Shown: piece after piece, positions 5,524 to 61,655 of the stretch
Layout: the number at the start of each line of letters is the position of its first letter
Position numbering within the stretch: position 1 is the first letter of the stretch
From: Halorarum halobium
GTDB taxonomy: Archaea; Halobacteriota; Halobacteria; Halobacteriales; Haloferacaceae
DNA length: 64,000 nt
Assembly (NCBI RefSeq): GCF_032116555.1
Contig: NZ_CP134949.1
Location: 620,001 to 684,000 of the forward strand
Direction: 5' to 3'
Position numbers and translations under genes: made by a program
Notes under the pieces: generated by a model
What the model saw: the letters and a program-made list of their open reading frames with translations, nothing else
Databases searched by the model: none
Told to the model about the DNA's origin: nothing

Positions 5524-5682
5524 GTGGAGACGGACTCGGGTTTCGTTTTGGTTTCTCGATTGATCGGCTCGAAAGTCATCGCTATCGTCCTTTCGGGGAA
5601 GTTCGGTCGACGCTCCGACTGCCTCGAAAGCCCTCGGTGTATCGTATTCAGACCTGTCTCGGGTATCAGTGACGCACGCCTC

Positions 5683-5802
5683 GAAAGCCCCCTCGGCTGT
5701 CGACTCGGTGCGACTGCTGTGCTCCTCGGCTCGCTACGCTCGCCTGCGGTGCTTGACAGTCGCGCCATCGCCGACAGCCGAGGCCCCTTTCAGTCCCACC
5801 CG
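5683..5802 (+). repeat. Intergenic structured repeat, module 1 copy A
   Basis: GAAAGCCC-[CCTCGGCTGTCG 5691-5702]...TGCTCCTC...CCTGCGGTGCTTG...[CGACAGCCGAGG 5772-5783]-CCCCTTTCAGTCCCACCCG; homologous to 27496-27707 and 53572-53695. Confidence 0.85.
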
Positions 5803-5819
5803 ACCGCACCGCCACCGCA

Positions 5820-5941
5820 CCTCACCCTCCCCAGCCTCCTGTGCTCCTCGATTCACTCGCTGCGCTCGTTCACCTGCGGTGCTCGTCCCTCGCGCGCGTC
5901 GACTCACCCCACGAGGGGGTTCGCGTCACGCGCGCCAGCCG
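5820..5941 (+). repeat. Intergenic structured repeat, module 2 copy A
   Basis: CCTCACCCTCCCCAGCC...GCTCCTCG...CGGTGCTCGTCCCTCGCGCGCG...CCCCACGAGGGGG...CGCGTCACGCGCGCCAGCCG; inverted homolog at 53821-53983. Confidence 0.8.
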
Positions 5942-5952
5942 GCTGATTCACG

Positions 5953-7140
5953 TCACGAGGTCTCCGAACTCCCGTTTAACGTCTCGTGAATCCCGAGCAC
6001 CAGCGCCGGCACGACGACCATGAAGACGTGCTCCTCCAGGGGAATCCCGAGCAGTTCGACCCCCGTCCGCATCGGGATCGAGAACACGCCGACCTCCAGC
6101 GTGTACCAGTCCCAGACGTACGCGACGGGGTAGAGCACGGCGATCGTCCTCGCGGCGCGCCACAGCGCGTCCCGCCCCTCCCGAGCCAGCAGCGCGAGCG
6201 CGGCGGTCCCGAACGCGACCTCCGTGGCGAGGTAGGTGTACGGGCCGAGGGCGGTGACGTTCGGGAGTCCGACGTCCGCGAGCGGTCGGAAGAACGTCGC
6301 CACCAGCAGGCCGGCGAGGAACAGGTACGCGCCCCGGATCAGGAGCATCGTCGCCGTCTCGGCGTCCGCGGGGTAGGCGAGCGCGACGACGGCGGCGTAG
6401 ACGAGGCTCGCGGCGGGGGCGCTCGGCGGGACGACGCCCACGACCGCGAGCGGGACCACCGAGAACAGCCCCGCGCCGATGATGCCGTAGGCGAGCGTCC
6501 GGGCGCGCGAGCGGCCGAGCGCGACGGCGACCGTGCGCTTCCCGATGGAGGTGTCGTAGGCGTAGTCCTGCGAGTCGTCGACCACCTTCACCCCGGCGAG
6601 CGTGACGAGGAACACGCAGGCGAGCGCCAGCGGCTCCGGGGCGACGAGGCCGGTCTGGGCGACGTAGCCGCCCAGGACGCACAGCGCGATGCCGGTCGGG
6701 TAGCCCAGCGTCGTCGTCACCGGGTTCGTGTCGAGCTGTGGCGCGTGGAGGAAGCCGACGAACCAGGTCGGGAGCGTGACGAGCGCCGCGAGCGGGCCGG
6801 CCGCGGCGAGGAGCCAGAGGAGGCAGGCCAGAAAGCCGACCCCCGCGCCGACGAGGCCGAGCCGACAGCCCCGCTCGGTCATCGGGTGGTCATCGTCCTC
6901 GCCGCGGCCGTAGAAGTCGACGTAGCCGTCCTTCACGTGGGCGGTGTAGACGGCGAAGAACATCGCGGCGGCGTGGACGAGCGCCACCCGGACGTCGAAC
7001 CCGCCCCCGAGCGACTCGCCCGCGAGTGACGCGCCGAACAGCGAGGCCGCGAGCGGCGGGAGCATGAACACGGGGTGGACCTGGGAGGCGAACGCTCGGA
7101 GGGTCGCCGTCGGCCCGCTCCCGTGGCGGGCGACTGCCAT
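5953..7140 (-). CDS. Membrane protein: UbiA-like prenyltransferase domain fused to a C-terminal lycopene-cyclase-like domain
   Basis: Multi-TM; Asp-rich HVKDGYVDF..GEDDD and KVVDDSQDYAYD; C-terminal WDWYTLEVGVF...GIPLEEHVF resembles membrane lycopene cyclase domains. Confidence 0.65.
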   Translation of the reverse strand: MAVARHGSGPTATLRAFASQVHPVFMLPPLAASLFGASLAGESLGGGFDVRVALVHAAAMFFAVYTAHVKDGYVDFYGRGEDDDHPMTERGCRLGLVGAGVGFLACLLWLLAAAGPLAALVTLPTWFVGFLHAPQLDTNPVTTTLGYPTGIALCVLGGYVAQTGLVAPEPLALACVFLVTLAGVKVVDDSQDYAYDTSIGKRTVAVALGRSRARTLAYGIIGAGLFSVVPLAVVGVVPPSAPAASLVYAAVVALAYPADAETATMLLIRGAYLFLAGLLVATFFRPLADVGLPNVTALGPYTYLATEVAFGTAALALLAREGRDALWRAARTIAVLYPVAYVWDWYTLEVGVFSIPMRTGVELLGIPLEEHVFMVVVPALVLGIHETLNGSSETS

Positions 7141-10195: not shown

Positions 10196-10280
10196 GTGCC
10201 GTCGTGCGTGGACCGGTCGGAACGGACCCGGGAACGACGACCACGTCCGGACCGATCGGATCACCCGCGCGGGACGAGGC

Positions 10281-10610
10281 TCAGAACGACTCGTTCTCGC
10301 TCTCGCCGACGCCCTCCCGCGTGTCGTTGGAGACGCCCCGATCCGAGTAGCGCTGTCGACCGACCGACTCGCTGGGCATGTGGTTGAGCGCCATCTGGCG
10401 GACCTCCCGGGTCGACTCGAAGGTGTCCTCGCCCATCGGGCCGAACAGCTCGGCGACCGTGATGGGGCCGGCGTTCGTCCGGCGGAACTCCCTGTCGCCG
10501 TGCTCGTCGATGAGTTCGTCGGCGGAGACCGGATACGAGAGTTCCTCGAGCGCGGCGTTGACGTCGACGAAGTCGACTCCCTCCTCCCGGTCGGTGTCCT
10601 CCCTGGCCAT
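10281..10610 (-). CDS. Small acidic haloarchaeal protein (DUF5789-like), paralog of 48848..49177
   Basis: LSYPVSADELIDEHGDRE...MPSESVGRQRYSDRG. Confidence 0.75.
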   Translation of the reverse strand: MAREDTDREEGVDFVDVNAALEELSYPVSADELIDEHGDREFRRTNAGPITVAELFGPMGEDTFESTREVRQMALNHMPSESVGRQRYSDRGVSNDTREGVGESENESF

Positions 10611-11095
10611 ACGCCACGTTCGGCCGCCGAGGTGTAACCGGTTGTCACCAGTCCGTGCCCAGTCGGTGCCGCCTTTGATTGGTCACTGGCGGTGGACGTG
10701 TGTTCCTCGTCGGGCCGGTTGGGAGTGGTTCGGAGTTGGGTCAGTGGGTCTCGGGACCCGGACTCTCGGTAGCGGATGACGCTTGACGGCCCACACTCCA
10801 CGATTCATCAGAAGGTACGAGCGGTAGCTCGGGATTCGGGACCGACGACCGGCGGGACGTTCGCGGCGTTCAAGGGGGGTAATGGAATAAATCATGAAAC
10901 TCCACGAGGCGCTAATCGAATACGTGAGCGCCGATCCCGAGGACAAAGAACTCGGGACAATGATTGTTTCGAACGGCGATGGGAGCTAACGGAGTTGATT
11001 CGGCAGTAGTTATATTTCGGCAATCCGTTCCAGCGAAAACCTGACTACTGAGCCCATTGCAATGAGCTTCTGAAAATCAAGACCGATGTGCGAAG

Positions 11096-24356: not shown

Positions 24357-25751
24357 CTACTCCTCCGGGAACGTCGTCCCCGGGTTCAGCGTCCCGTTCG
24401 GGTCGAGCGCGTCCTTCACCGCCCGCATCGCGTCGACGGCGTCGCCGTGCTCGCGCCGGAGGAACTCGCGTTTCCCCTTGCCGATGCCGTGTTCGCCGGT
24501 GACGGTGCCGTCGAGTTCCAGGGCGCGCCCGATCAGGTCCTCGTAGGCCCGCTCGGCGCGGGTCGACTCGTCGGGGTCGTCGTGGTCGTAGACGGCGAAG
24601 TAGTGGAGGTTGCCGTCGCCCGCGTGGCCGAACGCCGGCACGAACAGGTCGTACTCGGCGGCGACGTCCTTCACCGCGCGGATCATCTCGGGGTAGGCGC
24701 CGATGGGCACCGTGACGTCGCCGGGGTGACCCATCGACGCCCCCTCGCGCCACTCGTCGGCGGCGTAGGTGATGTCCCGGCGGGCCGTCCAGAGGTCGTC
24801 CATCCCGTCGCCCTCGTCCACCTCGAACGACTCCACGTCGTGTGCGGCAAACACCGCCCTGCAGAACGCGACCTCCTCCTCGACGCCGTGGTCGGCGTGG
24901 AACTCCACGAACGCCATCGGGCGCTCGGGCATCTCCGTCCCGGAGTAGTCGTTGGCGACCGCCGCGGCGTCGGCGTCCATCAGTTCGATCTTCGCCACGT
25001 CGACCCCGGACGTGACGGCGTCCCGGACCGCCGCTGTCGCGTCATCGAGCGTCGGGAACACTGCCCGGCCGCCGCGGACCTGCTCGGGGATGCCCGCGAG
25101 TTCGAGCGTCGCGCGCGTCACGACGCCCAGGGTTCCCTCCGAGCCGACCAGCAGGTCGGTGAGGTTGTAGCCGCTGGAGGTCTTGGCGGCCATGGTGCCG
25201 GTTTCGATCACGGTGCCGTCCGCGAGCACGACCTCCAGCGCGCGGACCCAGTCGCCGACCTCGCCGTACTTCACCGTCCCCATGCCGGAGGCGTCGGTGG
25301 CGATCATGCCCCCGACCGTCGAGATGGCTCCCGAGGAGGGGAGCGGCGGGAAGGTGAGGCCGTGGCGGGCGACCCGTTCGTTCAGGTCGTCGCCGACGAC
25401 GCCCGGTTCGACGTCGACGGTGAGGTCGTCGGGGCGCACGTCGACGACGCGGTCCATGCGCGTGAGATCGAGGCTGATTCCGCCCTCGACGGGCGTTACG
25501 TGTGACTCCAGGCTCGTCCCCGCGGCGTAGGGCGTGACGGCGACGCCGCGGTCGTCGGCCGCCGCCAGCACCGCGGACACGTCGGCGGTCGACTCGGGGA
25601 ACACGACCGCGTCGGGGAGCACCTCGTCGTCGGGGGCCGTGTCGTAGCTCCCGGCGTGCGTGCCGCGGTCCGAGGTGCCCCGCGACACCTCGCCGTCGAG
25701 CGCGAGGTCGTCGAGGAACCCCGGGTCCCGTCCGTCCGCACCCTGACTCAT
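24357..25751 (-). CDS. FAD-binding oxidoreductase, D-lactate dehydrogenase/GlcD family
   Basis: AGTSLE, TVGGMIATDASG, SGYNLTDLLVGSEGTLG, GHAGDGNLH, GEHGIG. Confidence 0.9.
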   Translation of the reverse strand: MSQGADGRDPGFLDDLALDGEVSRGTSDRGTHAGSYDTAPDDEVLPDAVVFPESTADVSAVLAAADDRGVAVTPYAAGTSLESHVTPVEGGISLDLTRMDRVVDVRPDDLTVDVEPGVVGDDLNERVARHGLTFPPLPSSGAISTVGGMIATDASGMGTVKYGEVGDWVRALEVVLADGTVIETGTMAAKTSSGYNLTDLLVGSEGTLGVVTRATLELAGIPEQVRGGRAVFPTLDDATAAVRDAVTSGVDVAKIELMDADAAAVANDYSGTEMPERPMAFVEFHADHGVEEEVAFCRAVFAAHDVESFEVDEGDGMDDLWTARRDITYAADEWREGASMGHPGDVTVPIGAYPEMIRAVKDVAAEYDLFVPAFGHAGDGNLHYFAVYDHDDPDESTRAERAYEDLIGRALELDGTVTGEHGIGKGKREFLRREHGDAVDAMRAVKDALDPNGTLNPGTTFPEE

Positions 25752-25895
25752 GGGTACACGGGGCACGCCGACGACCAAGAGGGCTCCGGTGACGCGGGAG
25801 CGGTTCGCGGGTCCGCCCCCACCGGAGGGAGCCGGGACCGGCGAGGGGGACCGGCACCGTCCCGCTTTTCCCCCCGGGTCGTGACCGTTCGACCG

Positions 25896-27371
25896 ATGAC
25901 GCGCCCGTCGGCGGCCGACCTCGACCCGGACGACCTCGGCTTCGCACACGTCCCCGAGACCGACCAGTCGTTCGAGAACGCCCTGGCGAAGGCCCGCGAC
26001 GGCCAGCGCCTGACCGTCGACGACGCGGTGGAACTGCTGACGACCGGCACCGACGGCGCGACGAGCATCGACCAGGAGCGCAAGGAGGCGGTGCTGGAGG
26101 CCGCGGACCGCCGGCGCGCCGAGGTCGTCGGCGACGACGTCACGTTCGTCGCGAACCTGAACAACAACGTCACGACGGCGTGCAACACGGGCTGTCTGTT
26201 CTGCAACTTCAAGGACACCGCCCACCGGTTCGAGGTCGACCGCGACGGCGACGGAGGGCCGTCGCGGCGCACCGACCACGACGGCGACGGAGAGCCGTCG
26301 CGGCGCACCGACCACGGCGGGTTCACCAAGACCCCCGCCGAATCCAGGGCGGCCGTCGAAGCCGGACTCGATCGGGGCATCTACGAAGTCACCTCGGTCT
26401 CCGGGCTGCACCCCGCGTTCGCGCTGAACGACGACCACCACGAGATCCTCCGCGGGTTCGAGAACCCGGCCCGCGAGGTGAACTACAAGCCGCCCGAGCG
26501 CTACGTGGTCGACCCCGGCACGTACGTCGAGCAGATGGCGGCCATGTCCGTGGGCGGCATCCACCTCCACTCGATGACGCCCGAGGAGGCGTACCACGCC
26601 CGGCGGGGAACCGACTGGAGTTACAGGGAAGTGTACGAGAGACTCCGGGAGGCGGGCCTCGATTCGGCGCCCGGCACCGCCGCGGAGATCCTCGTGGACG
26701 AGGTCCGCGAGGTCATCTGCCCCGGGAAGATCGACACGCAGGGGTGGCTCGACGCGATGGAGGGCGCGGTCGCGGCCGGCCTCGACGTCACCTCGACGAT
26801 GATGTACGGCCACGTCGAGAACGAGATGCACCGGGCGATGCACCTCGAACGGATCCGGGACCTCCAGGACCGGACCGGCGGCATCACCGAGTTCGTCCCG
26901 CTCTCGTTCGTCCACGAGCGCACCCCGCTCTACGAGCACGGCGTCGTCTCGGGCGGCGCGAGCGACGACGAGGACGAACTGCTCATCGCGGTCGCGCGCC
27001 TGTTCCTCGACAACGTCGAGAACGTCCAGACGTCGTGGGTGAAGTACGGCGACGAGAAGGCGCTGAAGACGCTCTCGTGCGGGGCGAACGACTTCATGGG
27101 CACCATCCTCTCGGAGGAGATCACCAAGCGCGCGGGCGGACAGTTCGGCGAGTTCCGGAGCTTCGACGACTACGTCGAGATGGTGACCTCAATCGGTCGC
27201 ACCCCGGTCGAGCGGTCGACGGACTACCGGACGACCCGCGAACTCGACCCGACCGAGGCCGGCCCGTTCGGCCCGACGCTCGGCCCGCGGGCCGACGGAA
27301 CGCCGCTGTTGACCCCCGAGGAACGCGAGGCGAGGGCCGCCGGCGACCCCGGCGCCATCGCCGACGACTGA
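25896..27371 (+). CDS. cofH: FO synthase subunit CofH (F420 biosynthesis, radical SAM)
   Basis: TTACNTGCLFCNF, PGTAAEIL, TMMYGHVE, FVPLSF, GANDFMGT. Confidence 0.9.
   Translation: MTRPSAADLDPDDLGFAHVPETDQSFENALAKARDGQRLTVDDAVELLTTGTDGATSIDQERKEAVLEAADRRRAEVVGDDVTFVANLNNNVTTACNTGCLFCNFKDTAHRFEVDRDGDGGPSRRTDHDGDGEPSRRTDHGGFTKTPAESRAAVEAGLDRGIYEVTSVSGLHPAFALNDDHHEILRGFENPAREVNYKPPERYVVDPGTYVEQMAAMSVGGIHLHSMTPEEAYHARRGTDWSYREVYERLREAGLDSAPGTAAEILVDEVREVICPGKIDTQGWLDAMEGAVAAGLDVTSTMMYGHVENEMHRAMHLERIRDLQDRTGGITEFVPLSFVHERTPLYEHGVVSGGASDDEDELLIAVARLFLDNVENVQTSWVKYGDEKALKTLSCGANDFMGTILSEEITKRAGGQFGEFRSFDDYVEMVTSIGRTPVERSTDYRTTRELDPTEAGPFGPTLGPRADGTPLLTPEEREARAAGDPGAIADD
26238..26309 (+). repeat. 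In-frame 36-bp tandem duplication inside cofH
   Basis: GACCGCGACGGCGACGGAGGGCCGTCGCGGCGCACC / GACCACGACGGCGACGGAGAGCCGTCGCGGCGCACC (2 mismatches). Confidence 0.9.
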
Positions 27372-27495
27372 GCCGATCCACGGGGAGGACCCACCTTCTG
27401 GGGCAACGTTCCCGACCATCCCGCGACGACGACCGCCCGACTGACCACAGCGGTACGGGCGTCAGTCGGCGGACGCGCTCGGCCCGATCGACCAT

Positions 27496-27707
27496 CGGGT
27501 TGGACTGAACGGGGCCGCGTCGCTCGGGGAACCCCGACCCCTCAAGCACCGCAGGGAGCGAACGAAGTGAGCGACTGAGGAGCGCAGAGCGGGTCGCGGG
27601 AGGTCACGCGAGCGTAAGCGAGGGTGACTTCGGAAGTCGCAGCCCGCGCAGCGAGCGTAGCGAGCGAGCAGGAACGTCTTCCGTAACCGAGCGACGCGGG
27701 GGCTTTC
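27496..27707 (-). repeat. Intergenic structured repeat, module 1 copy B (carries an 84-bp internal cassette at 27603-27686)
   Basis: Minus strand GAAAGCCC-CCGCGTCGCTCGG...CCTGCGGTGCTTG...CCGAGCGACGCGG-CCCCGTTCAGTCCAACCCG; perfect 13-bp arms at 27515-27527 and 27687-27699. Confidence 0.85.
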
Positions 27708-27757
27708 CAGGTGTGTCGGTCGGTCGGAAAGGCAGTCAGAAGCGTTCACGATACCGA

Positions 27758-28270
27758 TCACGGAGCGTCCCGAACCGCCGCCTCCAGCTCCGCCACCTCA
27801 GGATAGACGCCCGACTCCTGGATCGCCCACGTCCACGTGACCTGCCGGTCGTCGTCGACGACGAACGCCGCGCGATCGGAGATTCCCGAGAGCAGGCCGC
27901 CCCCGCGCTCGACCCCGAACTCGCGGACGATCGAGTTGTTGAACCCCGAGACGAGCGGGTAGCCCAGGTCGTACTCGTCGACGAACGCGAGCAGCGACCA
28001 CGGGGTGTCGACGCTCACGCCGTAGACGTCGACCGACGACTCGGCGAGGTCGTCGCGCCAGTCGCGGTAGGCACACAGTTCCGCGGTGCAGGTCCGCGAG
28101 TAGACGCCGGGGTAGAACGCGAGGACGACCGGCCCGTCGGCGGCGGCGCGGTCGAGGTCGAACTCCGCGACGTGCTCGCCGGTGTACGCGCCGCGTTCGG
28201 CGGTCTCGGCGGCTTCCGGCGTCGCCATCGGCGCGGTCACGTCGGGCGCGGTGTCTCCCGTTTCGAGCAT
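27758..28270 (-). CDS. Redoxin/peroxiredoxin-like protein
   Basis: GDTAPD, LAFYPGVYSRTCTAELC, GVSVD, DRAAFVVD. Confidence 0.85.
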   Translation of the reverse strand: MLETGDTAPDVTAPMATPEAAETAERGAYTGEHVAEFDLDRAAADGPVVLAFYPGVYSRTCTAELCAYRDWRDDLAESSVDVYGVSVDTPWSLLAFVDEYDLGYPLVSGFNNSIVREFGVERGGGLLSGISDRAAFVVDDDRQVTWTWAIQESGVYPEVAELEAAVRDAP

Positions 28271-48679: not shown

Positions 48680-48847
48680 GGTGAACGGGTGAACGTTCGT
48701 CGCCGCGGGCGTGAATCCGTCGGTGCCGGCGGCGGTGGCCGGGTCGAGGCTTCGGGTGCCAGTTCGGGCGTGGCCGCGGTCGTTCAGACGGGACTCCCTC
48801 GGGAAATCGGCGACAAGAGGTAACCCCGTCGAGGTACAAGCCACCGC

Positions 48848-49177
48848 ATGGCCGACGACGACACCGAGCGCGAGGGAGGCGTCGACTTCTCGGCGATCAA
48901 CCCGCTACTGGCGGAGCTCTCGTATCCGGTGACCGCGGAGGAACTCGTCGAACGGCACGGCGACAGGGAGTTGAAGCCGACCAACGCCGAGCCAATCTCG
49001 ATCGCGGAGCTGTTCGAGCCGATGGGCGACGCGACGTTCGAGTCGGCCGAGGAGGTGCGCCGGATGGCGCTCGGCCAGATGCCCAGCGAGTCGGTCGGCA
49101 GGGAGGGGTACTCGGACCGCGGCACCGACGTCGACACGGGGGACGAGGACGAGGCGGCCGGGGACGAGTCGTTCTGA
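48848..49177 (+). CDS. Small acidic haloarchaeal protein (DUF5789-like), paralog of 10281..10610
   Basis: LSYPVTAEELVERHGDRE...MPSESVGREGYSDRG. Confidence 0.75.
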   Translation: MADDDTEREGGVDFSAINPLLAELSYPVTAEELVERHGDRELKPTNAEPISIAELFEPMGDATFESAEEVRRMALGQMPSESVGREGYSDRGTDVDTGDEDEAAGDESF

Positions 49178-49308
49178 TCCGGTCGCGGGCGAGTTCGACC
49201 CGGCCAGCGACGGAGAAATCGCCGACGGCAGTAGGGTGATTGCACGCCGATATAATGCTTATCGGTAACACTTAACAAGGGCTCGGCGGCTACCATCAGT
49301 TGCACGGC

Positions 49309-53445: not shown

Positions 53446-53571
53446 CGATTGCTCTATTGTGGTTACGGGGAAAGACCCACGCTAGTCGGTCGTCTCTGCC
53501 GTCGCCGATGACGCCGTGTTCTCTAATTTCTTCGTGCGTGATTCTCCGTGGACTACCGTTATGGTGGCCGC

Positions 53572-53695
53572 GAAAGCCCCCGCTGCTCTCGGCTCGCGCG
53601 CCTCGCTGCGCTCCTCGTCGCTCACTGCGTTCGCTCCTGCGGTGCTTGCGTCGTCGTGCTTCCCCGAGAGCAGCGGCCCCTTTCAGTCCCACCCG
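53572..53695 (+). repeat. Intergenic structured repeat, module 1 copy C
   Basis: GAAAGCCC-[CCGCTGCTCTCGG 53580-53592]...CCTGCGGTGCTTG...[CCGAGAGCAGCGG 53664-53676]-CCCCTTTCAGTCCCACCCG. Confidence 0.87.
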
Positions 53696-53820
53696 CCGAT
53701 TAGTCGACCGAGCGTCGTTCCCCCGACTACCGCACGTACCGCCGTCGGTAGTCCGTCGAGGCGTCCGCCCGTCCGGCCGACGGTGACGCTGGCAGCAGGG
53801 GTGCGGTCGGCGCCTGCTTG

Positions 53821-53983
53821 CGGCTGGCGGTCACGCGAGCGGAGCGAGGGTGACGTCACGGGACCGGAGGTCCCGGGTAACGCGTGACGCGAGCCCCCCT
53901 TGTGGGGCGAGCACTCGCGCGCGAGGGATGAGCACCGGAGCGAGCTTGCGAGCGAGGAGCGCAAGCGGTTGGGGAGGGCGAGG
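53821..53983 (-). repeat. Intergenic structured repeat, module 2 inverted copy (carries a 51-bp cassette at 53830-53880)
   Basis: Reverse complement aligns with 5820-5941 apart from the cassette. Confidence 0.8.
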
Positions 53984-54094
53984 CCCTCCTCGGTCAAGCA
54001 GTGGTGGTCAGCCTGACCGGACAAGCAACGGCTGTGATCTGGAGTCGATATCAGAGCGCGTCGCTTAACCCGACCCGACCCCTGAGGAACCCAC

Positions 54095-60783: not shown

Positions 60784-61440
60784 ATGGTGTACGATGCGGT
60801 CGTGTTCGACAACGACGGCGTGCTCGTCGGGCGGACGAGCTACGACGTGCTCCACGAGGCCGCGTGGGACGCCTTCGACGCCCTCTCGGTCGCGGACCCG
60901 GACCCCGACCACGTCGAGTCGATGGTCGTCGGCGTCACCCCCGAGGGGGTCGAGTCCGTCTGTTCGGCCTACGACCTCTCGCCCGCGGAGTTCTGGACGG
61001 CCCGCGACCGCACCGCGTTCGAGGCCCAGCGCCGCGAGGTCCGGGCGGGCCGGAAGTCGCTGTACGACGACGTCGACGTGCTCCGCGACATCGCCGCGCC
61101 GCTGGGCATCGTCTCGTCGAACCAGCAGGAGACGGTCGATTTCATGCTGGACCACTTCGGCGTCTCGGACCTGTTCGGTGCGGCCTACGGCCGTGAGCCG
61201 ACCCTGGAGAGCCTGACCCGCAAGAAGCCGAACAGCCACTACATCGACCGCGCGCTGGGGGACCTGGACGCGGAGACGGCCCTGTTCGTCGGCGACAACG
61301 AGTCGGACCTGCGGGCGGCCGACAACGCCGGGATCGACTCGGCGTTCATCCGCCGCCCGCACCGCGAGGAGTACGACCTGTCGGTCACGCCGACCTACGA
61401 CGTGCAGGACCTCCACGACGTCGCCGCGCTCTGTCGGTGA
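60784..61440 (+). CDS. HAD family hydrolase
   Basis: FDNDGVL, VSSN, KKP, VGDNESD. Confidence 0.9.
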   Translation: MVYDAVVFDNDGVLVGRTSYDVLHEAAWDAFDALSVADPDPDHVESMVVGVTPEGVESVCSAYDLSPAEFWTARDRTAFEAQRREVRAGRKSLYDDVDVLRDIAAPLGIVSSNQQETVDFMLDHFGVSDLFGAAYGREPTLESLTRKKPNSHYIDRALGDLDAETALFVGDNESDLRAADNAGIDSAFIRRPHREEYDLSVTPTYDVQDLHDVAALCR

Positions 61441-61655
61441 GCCGGGACGGGGGTCGGCGCAGGCGCGGAGCGGCGAGCACCACGGTGCGAGCGTAAGTAG
61501 CGCGAGTGTAACGAGCGCGAGCAGCGCGGAGGGGGGCACCGAGTCGAGCGCCGCGCGGCCGTTCGGGGCGTGCGTCACGCCGGCCGAGACGATGCCGACG
61601 GAACCGGGTCCCGATGGGGGACAAGCGTTTCACCCGGCGCCGCCTACACCCGAGC

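Follow-up and report, generated by a model that had tools for sequence, protein, structure and literature searches.

A twin-hairpin cassette of about 50 nucleotides in mosaic repeats and protein genes of Halobacteria, and how it may move

What are the two short segments that interrupt otherwise matching intergenic repeats in this window, a 64,000-nucleotide stretch (C1:620001-684000) of a 3.68-Mb, 99.9%-complete genome assigned to the Halobacteria by gene content and relatives, and how did they come to lie there? A preliminary description had taken them for a tiny non-autonomous element with fixed ends, related to IS200/IS605 elements and homing into a second repeat family. Both extra segments are present as it described them (Table 1). 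The 84-nt segment is extra relative to module-1 copy C, in which the empty junction reads GAG/CCGAG on the minus strand (here and below a slash marks the junction), and the 51-nt segment is extra relative to copy A, with an empty junction of CGGCTGGCG/CGCGTGAC, also on the minus strand; flanking duplication is absent at both. The junction of copy B was taken from direct reading of the sequence, MAFFT having placed the gap wrongly there. An 11-mer common to both inserts, TCACGCGAGCG, occurs 59 times in the genome and twice in the reversed genome, and its recurrence is therefore not due to chance. A covariance model whose training set included the 51-nt copy and not the 84-nt copy matched exactly these two units in the window (E values of 2.7e-13 and 2.6e-9; the next match had 0.047). 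Compared with shuffled sequences, the 51-nt copy folds better (z -2.93) and the 84-nt copy does not (z -0.88), under an energy model that leaves G.A pairs unscored.

Table 1. Host repeats and cassette parts in the window (window coordinates; limits of host repeats are approximate)
Feature	Position	Strand	Remarks
Host mosaic repeat copy A	5641..5990	-	Cassette-free; empty module-2 site 5933/5932
Host mosaic repeat copy B	27428..27711	+	Between convergent cofH-like (25656-27371 +) and AhpC/TSA (27758-28270 -) genes
Cassette copy 1	27603..27686	+	84 nt; long form of hairpin 2
Copy 1, hairpin 1	27603..27628	+	GTCAC/GTGAC stem, G.G, tandem GA/GA, GCGTAAGC tetraloop mini-hairpin; from sequence and fold, motif class as in the part of PMC13037366 consulted
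Copy 1, linker and hairpin 2	27629..27683	+	Linker TT (2 nt); hairpin 2 of 53 nt, CGGAAG...CTTCCG
Copy 1, second GCGTAGC mini-hairpin	27655-27661	+	Inside hairpin 2
Copy 1, tail	27684..27686	+	TAA (3 nt); predicted to pair back with linker
Host mosaic repeat with module-1 copy C and module 2	53561..54020	.	Copy C on minus strand, empty at 53592/53593; module 2 on plus strand, carries cassette copy 2; between ATP-grasp gene and DUF5813 gene
Cassette copy 2	53830..53880	+	51 nt
Copy 2, parts		+	Hairpin 1 53830-53854; linker GT; hairpin 2 53857-53877; tail TAA 53878-53880

The repeats that host these segments are intergenic mosaics, built as trees of hairpins on one purine-rich strand. A first BLAST search found 168 loci of the host family, and three iterations brought this to 189 loci (184 chromosomal) and about 49 kb, with no replichore bias visible in their orientation. 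At GAGC-NNN-GCGA sites a GNA loop is present in 121 of 146 cases inside the repeats as compared to 51 of 1135 outside; GCGNAGC and GCGNNAGC are described as unusually stable DNA mini-hairpins with a sheared G.A pair in the consulted part of PMC13037366. A census of this genome counted 54 left ends within repeat loci or close to them, of which two or three are doubtful; for 47 a right end could be recognised. The model search returned 42 copies at E≤1e-4. Only one copy outside the host repeats was found by nhmmer (E 2.3e-6, the next match having 0.26), which was used in place of a loose structural regular expression that gave 526 matches here vs 133 in the reversed genome. The cassettes occupy at least seven host sites. 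The commonest, GGCTG/GGGAG, is filled 16 times and empty 67 times, and the two sites of the window are filled 5 and 1 times vs 32 and 13 times empty; overall, empty host sites outnumber filled ones and the empty junctions are uniform. Judged by eye, insertion points in the host repeats lie at borders of stem and G.A-rich internal loop. Modules could not be defined by automatic means, as an insertion-bubble search of the host repeats was too redundant, and the output of a generic repeat finder on the window was dominated by GC-rich chance matches. The minimal host repeat is a short hairpin with central CCGG or CCGCGG, duplicated around an interior. A worn host-repeat copy lies in the window at about 61.5 kb (61436-61578), and behind several host copies the GGGGCTTTCGAGG end recurs in 56-57-bp tandem repeats (e.g., window 5641-5720). 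Apart from the repeats, window positions 10278-10613 and 48845-49180 hold two oppositely oriented ORFs of 109 codons each, probably paralogous genes, with 75% likeness across 336 nt.

The fixed ends of the preliminary description, GTCAC at the left and GTAA at the right, did not survive a wider census. Only 6 of 47 complete copies in this genome have both, 24 of 47 end in TAA, and the first base of the 54 left ends is C in 25, T in 18 and G in 11; beyond this genome, none of 74 parsed copies ends in TAA and 8 start with GTCAC. The G/C step seen at both window insertions is not general either, the base after the junction being G at 31, C at 14, T at 13 and A at 4 of 62 distinct sites. Twelve different tails occur in 113 copies, and the 74 copies of other genomes mostly combine linker and tail as CT/GTG, CT/GCG or CA/GAG. 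What the complete units share is an order of parts: hairpin 1 (25 nt, with tandem GA/GA and a GNA loop), a 2-nt linker, hairpin 2 (C...G, 18-84 nt) and a 3-nt tail, although some exact-pattern matches consist of hairpin 1 alone. Without nested inserts the cassette is 48-84 nt long, too short to code, and its ends are not complementary.

Pairing in this architecture was assessed by covariation. In 44 distinct short copies, 92.9% of cells are paired, a value matched by 0 of 500 shuffles, and slid registers reach 28-51%; double-sided changes occur in 7 of the 9 hairpin-2 pairs. In this 44-copy set the search pattern itself kept hairpin 1 nearly invariant; among 65 additional distinct copies, for which the parser required 7 of 8 pairs, each hairpin-1 stem pair is represented by at least two types of pair. 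The GA and GNA positions of the 74-copy set were imposed by the parser and thus are not independent evidence. In 65 of 71 types, against an expectation of 42.6, the first linker base forms a Watson-Crick, G.T or G.A pair with the final base of the tail. It does so in 29 of 29 further matches as well, this pair being built into the model that found the second and third sets. Among 76 copies folded as circles with DNA parameters, both junction pairs formed in 43 and the closing pair of hairpin 1 in 61. Because the copies are related, all shuffle tests overstate. Before the counts were made, 26 of 139 parsed copies were dropped, 19 by hand as mis-parsed or hairpin-1-only and 7 by a hairpin-1 filter, and the other-genome set was reduced from 81 rows to 74 by removal of inner hairpins taken for hairpin 1 and one atypical copy (7 in all). 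As read from sequence, the identity of the family lies in fold and spacing, not in end sequences.

The family extends well beyond this genus. Among 91 Halobacteria genomes, 76 matched the covariance model at E≤1e-4, and 52 had a best match at E≤1e-7. The exact pattern was found at 77 loci of the genome collection, 71 of them haloarchaeal by title (including Halorussus, Haloferax, Halorubrum, Natronomonas, and Salinarchaeum), and at 33 loci in metagenomes; in viral contigs the exact hairpin-1 pattern was not found. Copies inspected individually were the best match of 29 genomes and those of 80 further regions (88 model matches, 74 parsed). Five bacterial genomes chosen for carrying hairpin 1 gave 0-3 model matches each, in a different repeat layout; with the best of these at 3.6e-7, weak model matches are not proof of membership. 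A near-identical hairpin 1 does occur in palindromic repeats of Clostridia-type bacteria (L074, L116, L080, L257-L262), two of which (L074 and L116) lie directly 5' of a gene whose start presumably resembles those of DUF559 endonucleases.

That these units have been inserted, precisely and without regular target duplication, is borne out by filled and empty orthologous alleles, the comparison that the preliminary description had proposed. At the orthologue of the 53830 locus in one congener (G001), the site filled here is empty, and another site, empty here, is filled. Behind the cofH orthologue in both congeners the outer repeat is kept, the interior is different (inverted in G002) and the cassette is absent; seen across the three species, the outer arms of this host repeat are kept and its interior is replaced. 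The proposed homing into a larger repeat family describes most copies, but others lie in frame in protein genes or in repeats that trail tRNA genes. The 74 copies occupy 59 distinct target sites with no target tetranucleotide conserved, and at 60 of 62 site types the base before the junction is a purine. Flank and tail agree more often than in shuffles, in the last base (51 vs 42.2), in the last two bases (25 vs 12.1) and in the whole 3-mer (15 vs 4.3). In the first set the flank/tail match stood at 32 of 71 as against 10 expected; in the 29-genome set it was not significant (4 of 29 vs 2.3 expected, p 0.15), and it is absent from the TAA subfamily, to which both window copies belong (0 of 14 types). 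Family-wide, 0-3 bases are shared with the tail, and longer identity is seen only at tRNA-trailing copies and a few coding sites. The tRNA-trailing copies lie antisense to the tRNA, whose own 3' end supplies one arm of the hairpin-2 stem in all 8 types, the other arm being complementary to it. Stems of this tRNA-derived kind, topped by hairpin 1, follow tRNA-Gly and tRNA-Arg genes, at times as tandem units (L061, L059, L075, L121, L148, L070, L143). At another locus (L343:2600-3230) the 3' end of a NAD-dependent epimerase gene is repeated in 206-bp units with a cassette, the intact gene being without one, and the cassette site of this repeat is also filled in two other genomes (L313, L329).

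Open acidic frames were found in 7 of the 29 best matches and in 5 of the 74 further copies, and with the copy here the invaded genes number 12: those for DUF7531, PurD-like GARS, a TPP enzyme, CobN, PheT, a tetrapyrrole methylase, HisD, UDG, an AMP-binding enzyme, a FAD-binding enzyme, a secretion ATPase, and one product without a Pfam match. In the DUF7531 gene of this genome the in-frame insert is 48 bp long (C1:3120928-3120975) and the orthologue is empty in both of two congeners; in the PurD-like gene a 51-bp insert is absent from all three matched orthologues. Exact 17-residue gaps relative to homologues were found for PheT, the AMP-binding enzyme, a flavoprotein, and the TPP enzyme. The orthologue search for the TPP gene gave no empty allele at the DNA level. 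Sorted by evidence, two gene inserts have empty DNA orthologues, four exact gaps, four approximate gaps, and in two a gap was not shown. All gene inserts are 48, 51 or 57 nt long, follow the first base of a codon and have the purine-rich strand as sense. In 42 of 44 bodies the frame they use stays open, and none of the other five is as acidic or as poor in basic residues; survival bias therefore suffices to explain the preference for the sense strand. In one of the invaded genes, the CobN gene of L285, there is apparently a second 20-residue hairpin-derived insert besides the cassette.

On balance, we favor the reading that these inserts are copies of a gene-less mobile DNA family of about 50 bases with twin hairpins, likely moving as a single-stranded closed dumbbell circle that is opened by a host or visiting enzyme. 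Since the first linker base pairs with the last tail base, the joined ends would give a continuous rod closed by two loops. One could envision the purine-rich strand folding as DNA whenever it becomes single-stranded; cuts at the 5' foot of hairpin 1 and after the tail, followed by joining, would then yield a rod-shaped circle with the two closing pairs stacked, a one-strand transfer would place this circle into another single-stranded or hairpin site, and replication would fix the insert. Copies at the same host site would multiply mainly with the host repeat, through amplification and gene conversion, and those in genes would survive only if they were in frame and read as an acidic Gly/Ser/Ala-rich linker. 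A single-stranded circle has been proposed for the spread of BIMEs with TnpA(REP), in the part of PMC3333891 consulted. No circle or head-to-tail junction was found in any of the collected loci or in the genome, and the circle is thus a prediction; four metagenome runs, with contigs from other organisms only, gave no joint at cassette ends. We put forward more tentatively a wider proposal, of a mobile DNA spread throughout the class Halobacteria that transposes as a closed dumbbell, single-stranded and about 50 nt long. It would be recognised purely by its shape (a GNA mini-hairpin, tandem G.A pairs and one bulged base beside the joint) and moved by an enzyme other than TnpA, possibly a host recombinase or nicking enzyme acting in single strand exchange; this mobile DNA would build the nested mosaic repeats and add 16-19-residue loops to core proteins.

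Alternatively, neither a free intermediate nor a dedicated enzyme may be needed, a rather unlikely possibility but the main rival. Haloarchaea are polyploid and undergo frequent gene conversion. Polymerase stalling at a hairpin, or repair of a break there, would make the new strand take a cassette elsewhere as its template; once both hairpins had been copied, a few matching bases would allow its return, and conversion in the polyploid cell would spread the product. Consistent with this are the short identities of flank and tail, targets nearly identical to the joined ends at the TPP-enzyme and PurD-like sites, the replaced or inverted host-repeat interior at the cofH orthologue of two congeners, the making of hairpin 2 from the adjacent tRNA's 3' end, and the missing link to a transposase. 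A few copies in this genome, moreover, combine the left flank of one site with the right flank of another; recombination alone therefore also moves junctions. However, template switching should leave ragged ends, and the boundaries hold to one structural position at 59 distinct sites that span many families; members of the TAA subfamily have no base in common with their targets, and the linker/tail pair covaries though copying has no need of it. Regardless of how new sites are reached, template switching together with gene conversion probably accounts for the same-site and flank-chimeric copies.

The view of the preliminary description, that the cassette joins the two end hairpins, left and right, of an IS200/IS605 element and is mobilised in trans by TnpA, as in a palindrome-associated element (PATE), now appears improbable. 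It would account for two hairpins without inverted terminal repeat, for the lack of a regular duplication and for a DNA-type fold; moreover, the consulted part of PMC3119063 describes terminal-only PATEs of 52 bp and PATEs that moved in a strain with all tnpA genes broken, and TnpA is present in 9 of 18 carrier genomes. However, TnpA (PF01797) occurs in 0 of 3 genomes of this genus, the present one included, and in 7 of 15 element-rich as compared to 12 of 15 element-free genomes, although it may have been present in the past. In 21 tnpA loci and the single tnpB locus here, the model detected no unit at IS ends, within flanks that reach only 1.5 kb, so that distal ends may be missed; two model matches in tnpA loci lie about 1 kb away, in the duplicated epimerase end. 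The TTAC-type rule drawn from IS608 fares no better, for the ends vary while the fold is kept and there is no target motif of 4-6 nt. With hairpin 1 starting at base 1, there is also no room for a 5' guide as in the IS608 geometry; a guide rule of that type fitted the TAA copies by eye and failed for other tails. A tnpA gene near two copies, tried as the mover, proved to belong to a separate IS. The stand-alone tnpB of this genome, without tnpA, is situated immediately behind tRNA-Thr, on the border of a lower-GC island (C1:488790 region), with no unit nearby. IS110 and DUF559 are absent from this genome, nothing ties its nine tyrosine-recombinase matches to the cassette, and the only stand-alone GIY-YIG gene has no repeat beside it, unlike the Ssn genes in the consulted part of PMC11893778. 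No mobile gene stood out among the recurring neighbors of cassette loci, which, from cluster representatives read by eye, are mostly syntenic orthologues.

It is very unlikely that the cassette acts at the level of RNA, as a small intron-like or reverse-transcribed unit entering transcripts. The purine-rich strand is indeed sense in all 12 in-frame gene inserts, but the least basic, most acidic frame makes selection a sufficient explanation. Between co-directional genes, 3 cassettes lie sense and 7 antisense (from crude gene calls that leave 17 of 43 unclear), and the tRNA-trailing copies are antisense. The coding inserts are all multiples of 3 and hence not spliced out, and the unit has no Rfam match. 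That the long alleles are ancestral and the short ones deletions is scarcely credible: internally deleted and chimeric copies do exist, but distant homologues of the invaded proteins are without the segment, which already refutes deletion for coding sites, the same unit stands at dozens of unrelated sites with uniform empty junctions, and deletion from a long ancestor does not explain the filled and empty patterns at DUF7531 and in the G001 site swap.

How does the cassette compare to known systems? The PATEs of Haloquadratum walsbyi, as far as PMC3119063 was consulted, are likewise gene-less and haloarchaeal, with palindromic ends, no inverted terminal repeat, no target duplication and terminal-only forms of 52 bp. 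They are also described there as having near-terminal palindromes, a terminal oligonucleotide that is conserved, a targeting sequence of 4-5 bp and ends resembling those of IS605, and by these descriptions the cassette is set apart, having hairpin 1 from base 1, drifting ends, no target motif and, in the loci searched, no match to IS605 ends. SMR-A and SMR-B of the same species resemble it in being tiny, making no duplication and preferring palindromes of other repeats; in the same portion of PMC3119063, however, SMRs are 80-110 bp with inverted terminal repeats, which are prominent in SMR-A of about 110 bp, unlike two side-by-side hairpins with non-complementary ends. The mobilisation of SMRs is called enigmatic there. 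Rickettsia palindromic elements, in the part of PMC10969869 consulted, share in-frame insertion in unrelated housekeeping genes, but they are bacterial and about 150 bp long, whereas the cassette, 48-57 nt long where it lies in genes, is made of two hairpins that contain non-canonical G.A pairs and is found mostly in intergenic repeats. REP-tagged genes offer a further comparison for the in-gene inserts (PMC3733652, consulted in part). REP/BIME sequences with TnpA(REP) (PMC3333891) and SRM/NTS repeats with Ssn nucleases (PMC11893778), as those papers present them in the parts seen, are similarly mosaic hairpin repeats recognised as single-stranded DNA; unlike REP/BIME sequences as described there, the cassette has no GTAG or CGTC tag, C/T rule or RAYT gene, and PF01797 is missing from the genus. 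A MITE would have terminal inverted repeats matching a DDE transposon and a target duplication, and the cassette has neither. No description of the twin-hairpin family was found in the literature searched, a search with most subscription papers outside its scope. It is possible that the family overlaps with a named HqIRS family; from PATEs and SMRs it is set apart by their descriptions.

This family bears on the wider question of how palindromic repeats without genes can move where a matching transposase is missing: it offers a substrate of 50 nt whose boundaries are defined, which covaries naturally and for which a circle junction is predicted. The cassette also accounts for odd loops of 16-19 residues in haloarchaeal PheT, HisD, CobN, and other enzymes. 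A sibling unit of 55-64 nt with near-inverted ends, TGGTTCGA...TCGAACGA, occurs at 33 places (e.g., C1:239249-239500, 460190-460300) and inserts between CG and C(A/T) in either orientation, hairpin 1 of the cassette being among its targets. This sibling agrees with the SMR description in the consulted part of PMC3119063 better than the cassette does, and about half of its copies hold a nested 57-nt twin-hairpin unit. Two more twin-hairpin units start with TTCACG (C1, e.g., 239249, 453123, 104699, 274408), one symmetric with a 2-bp CG repeat and the other with the cassette's linker and a TAA tail.
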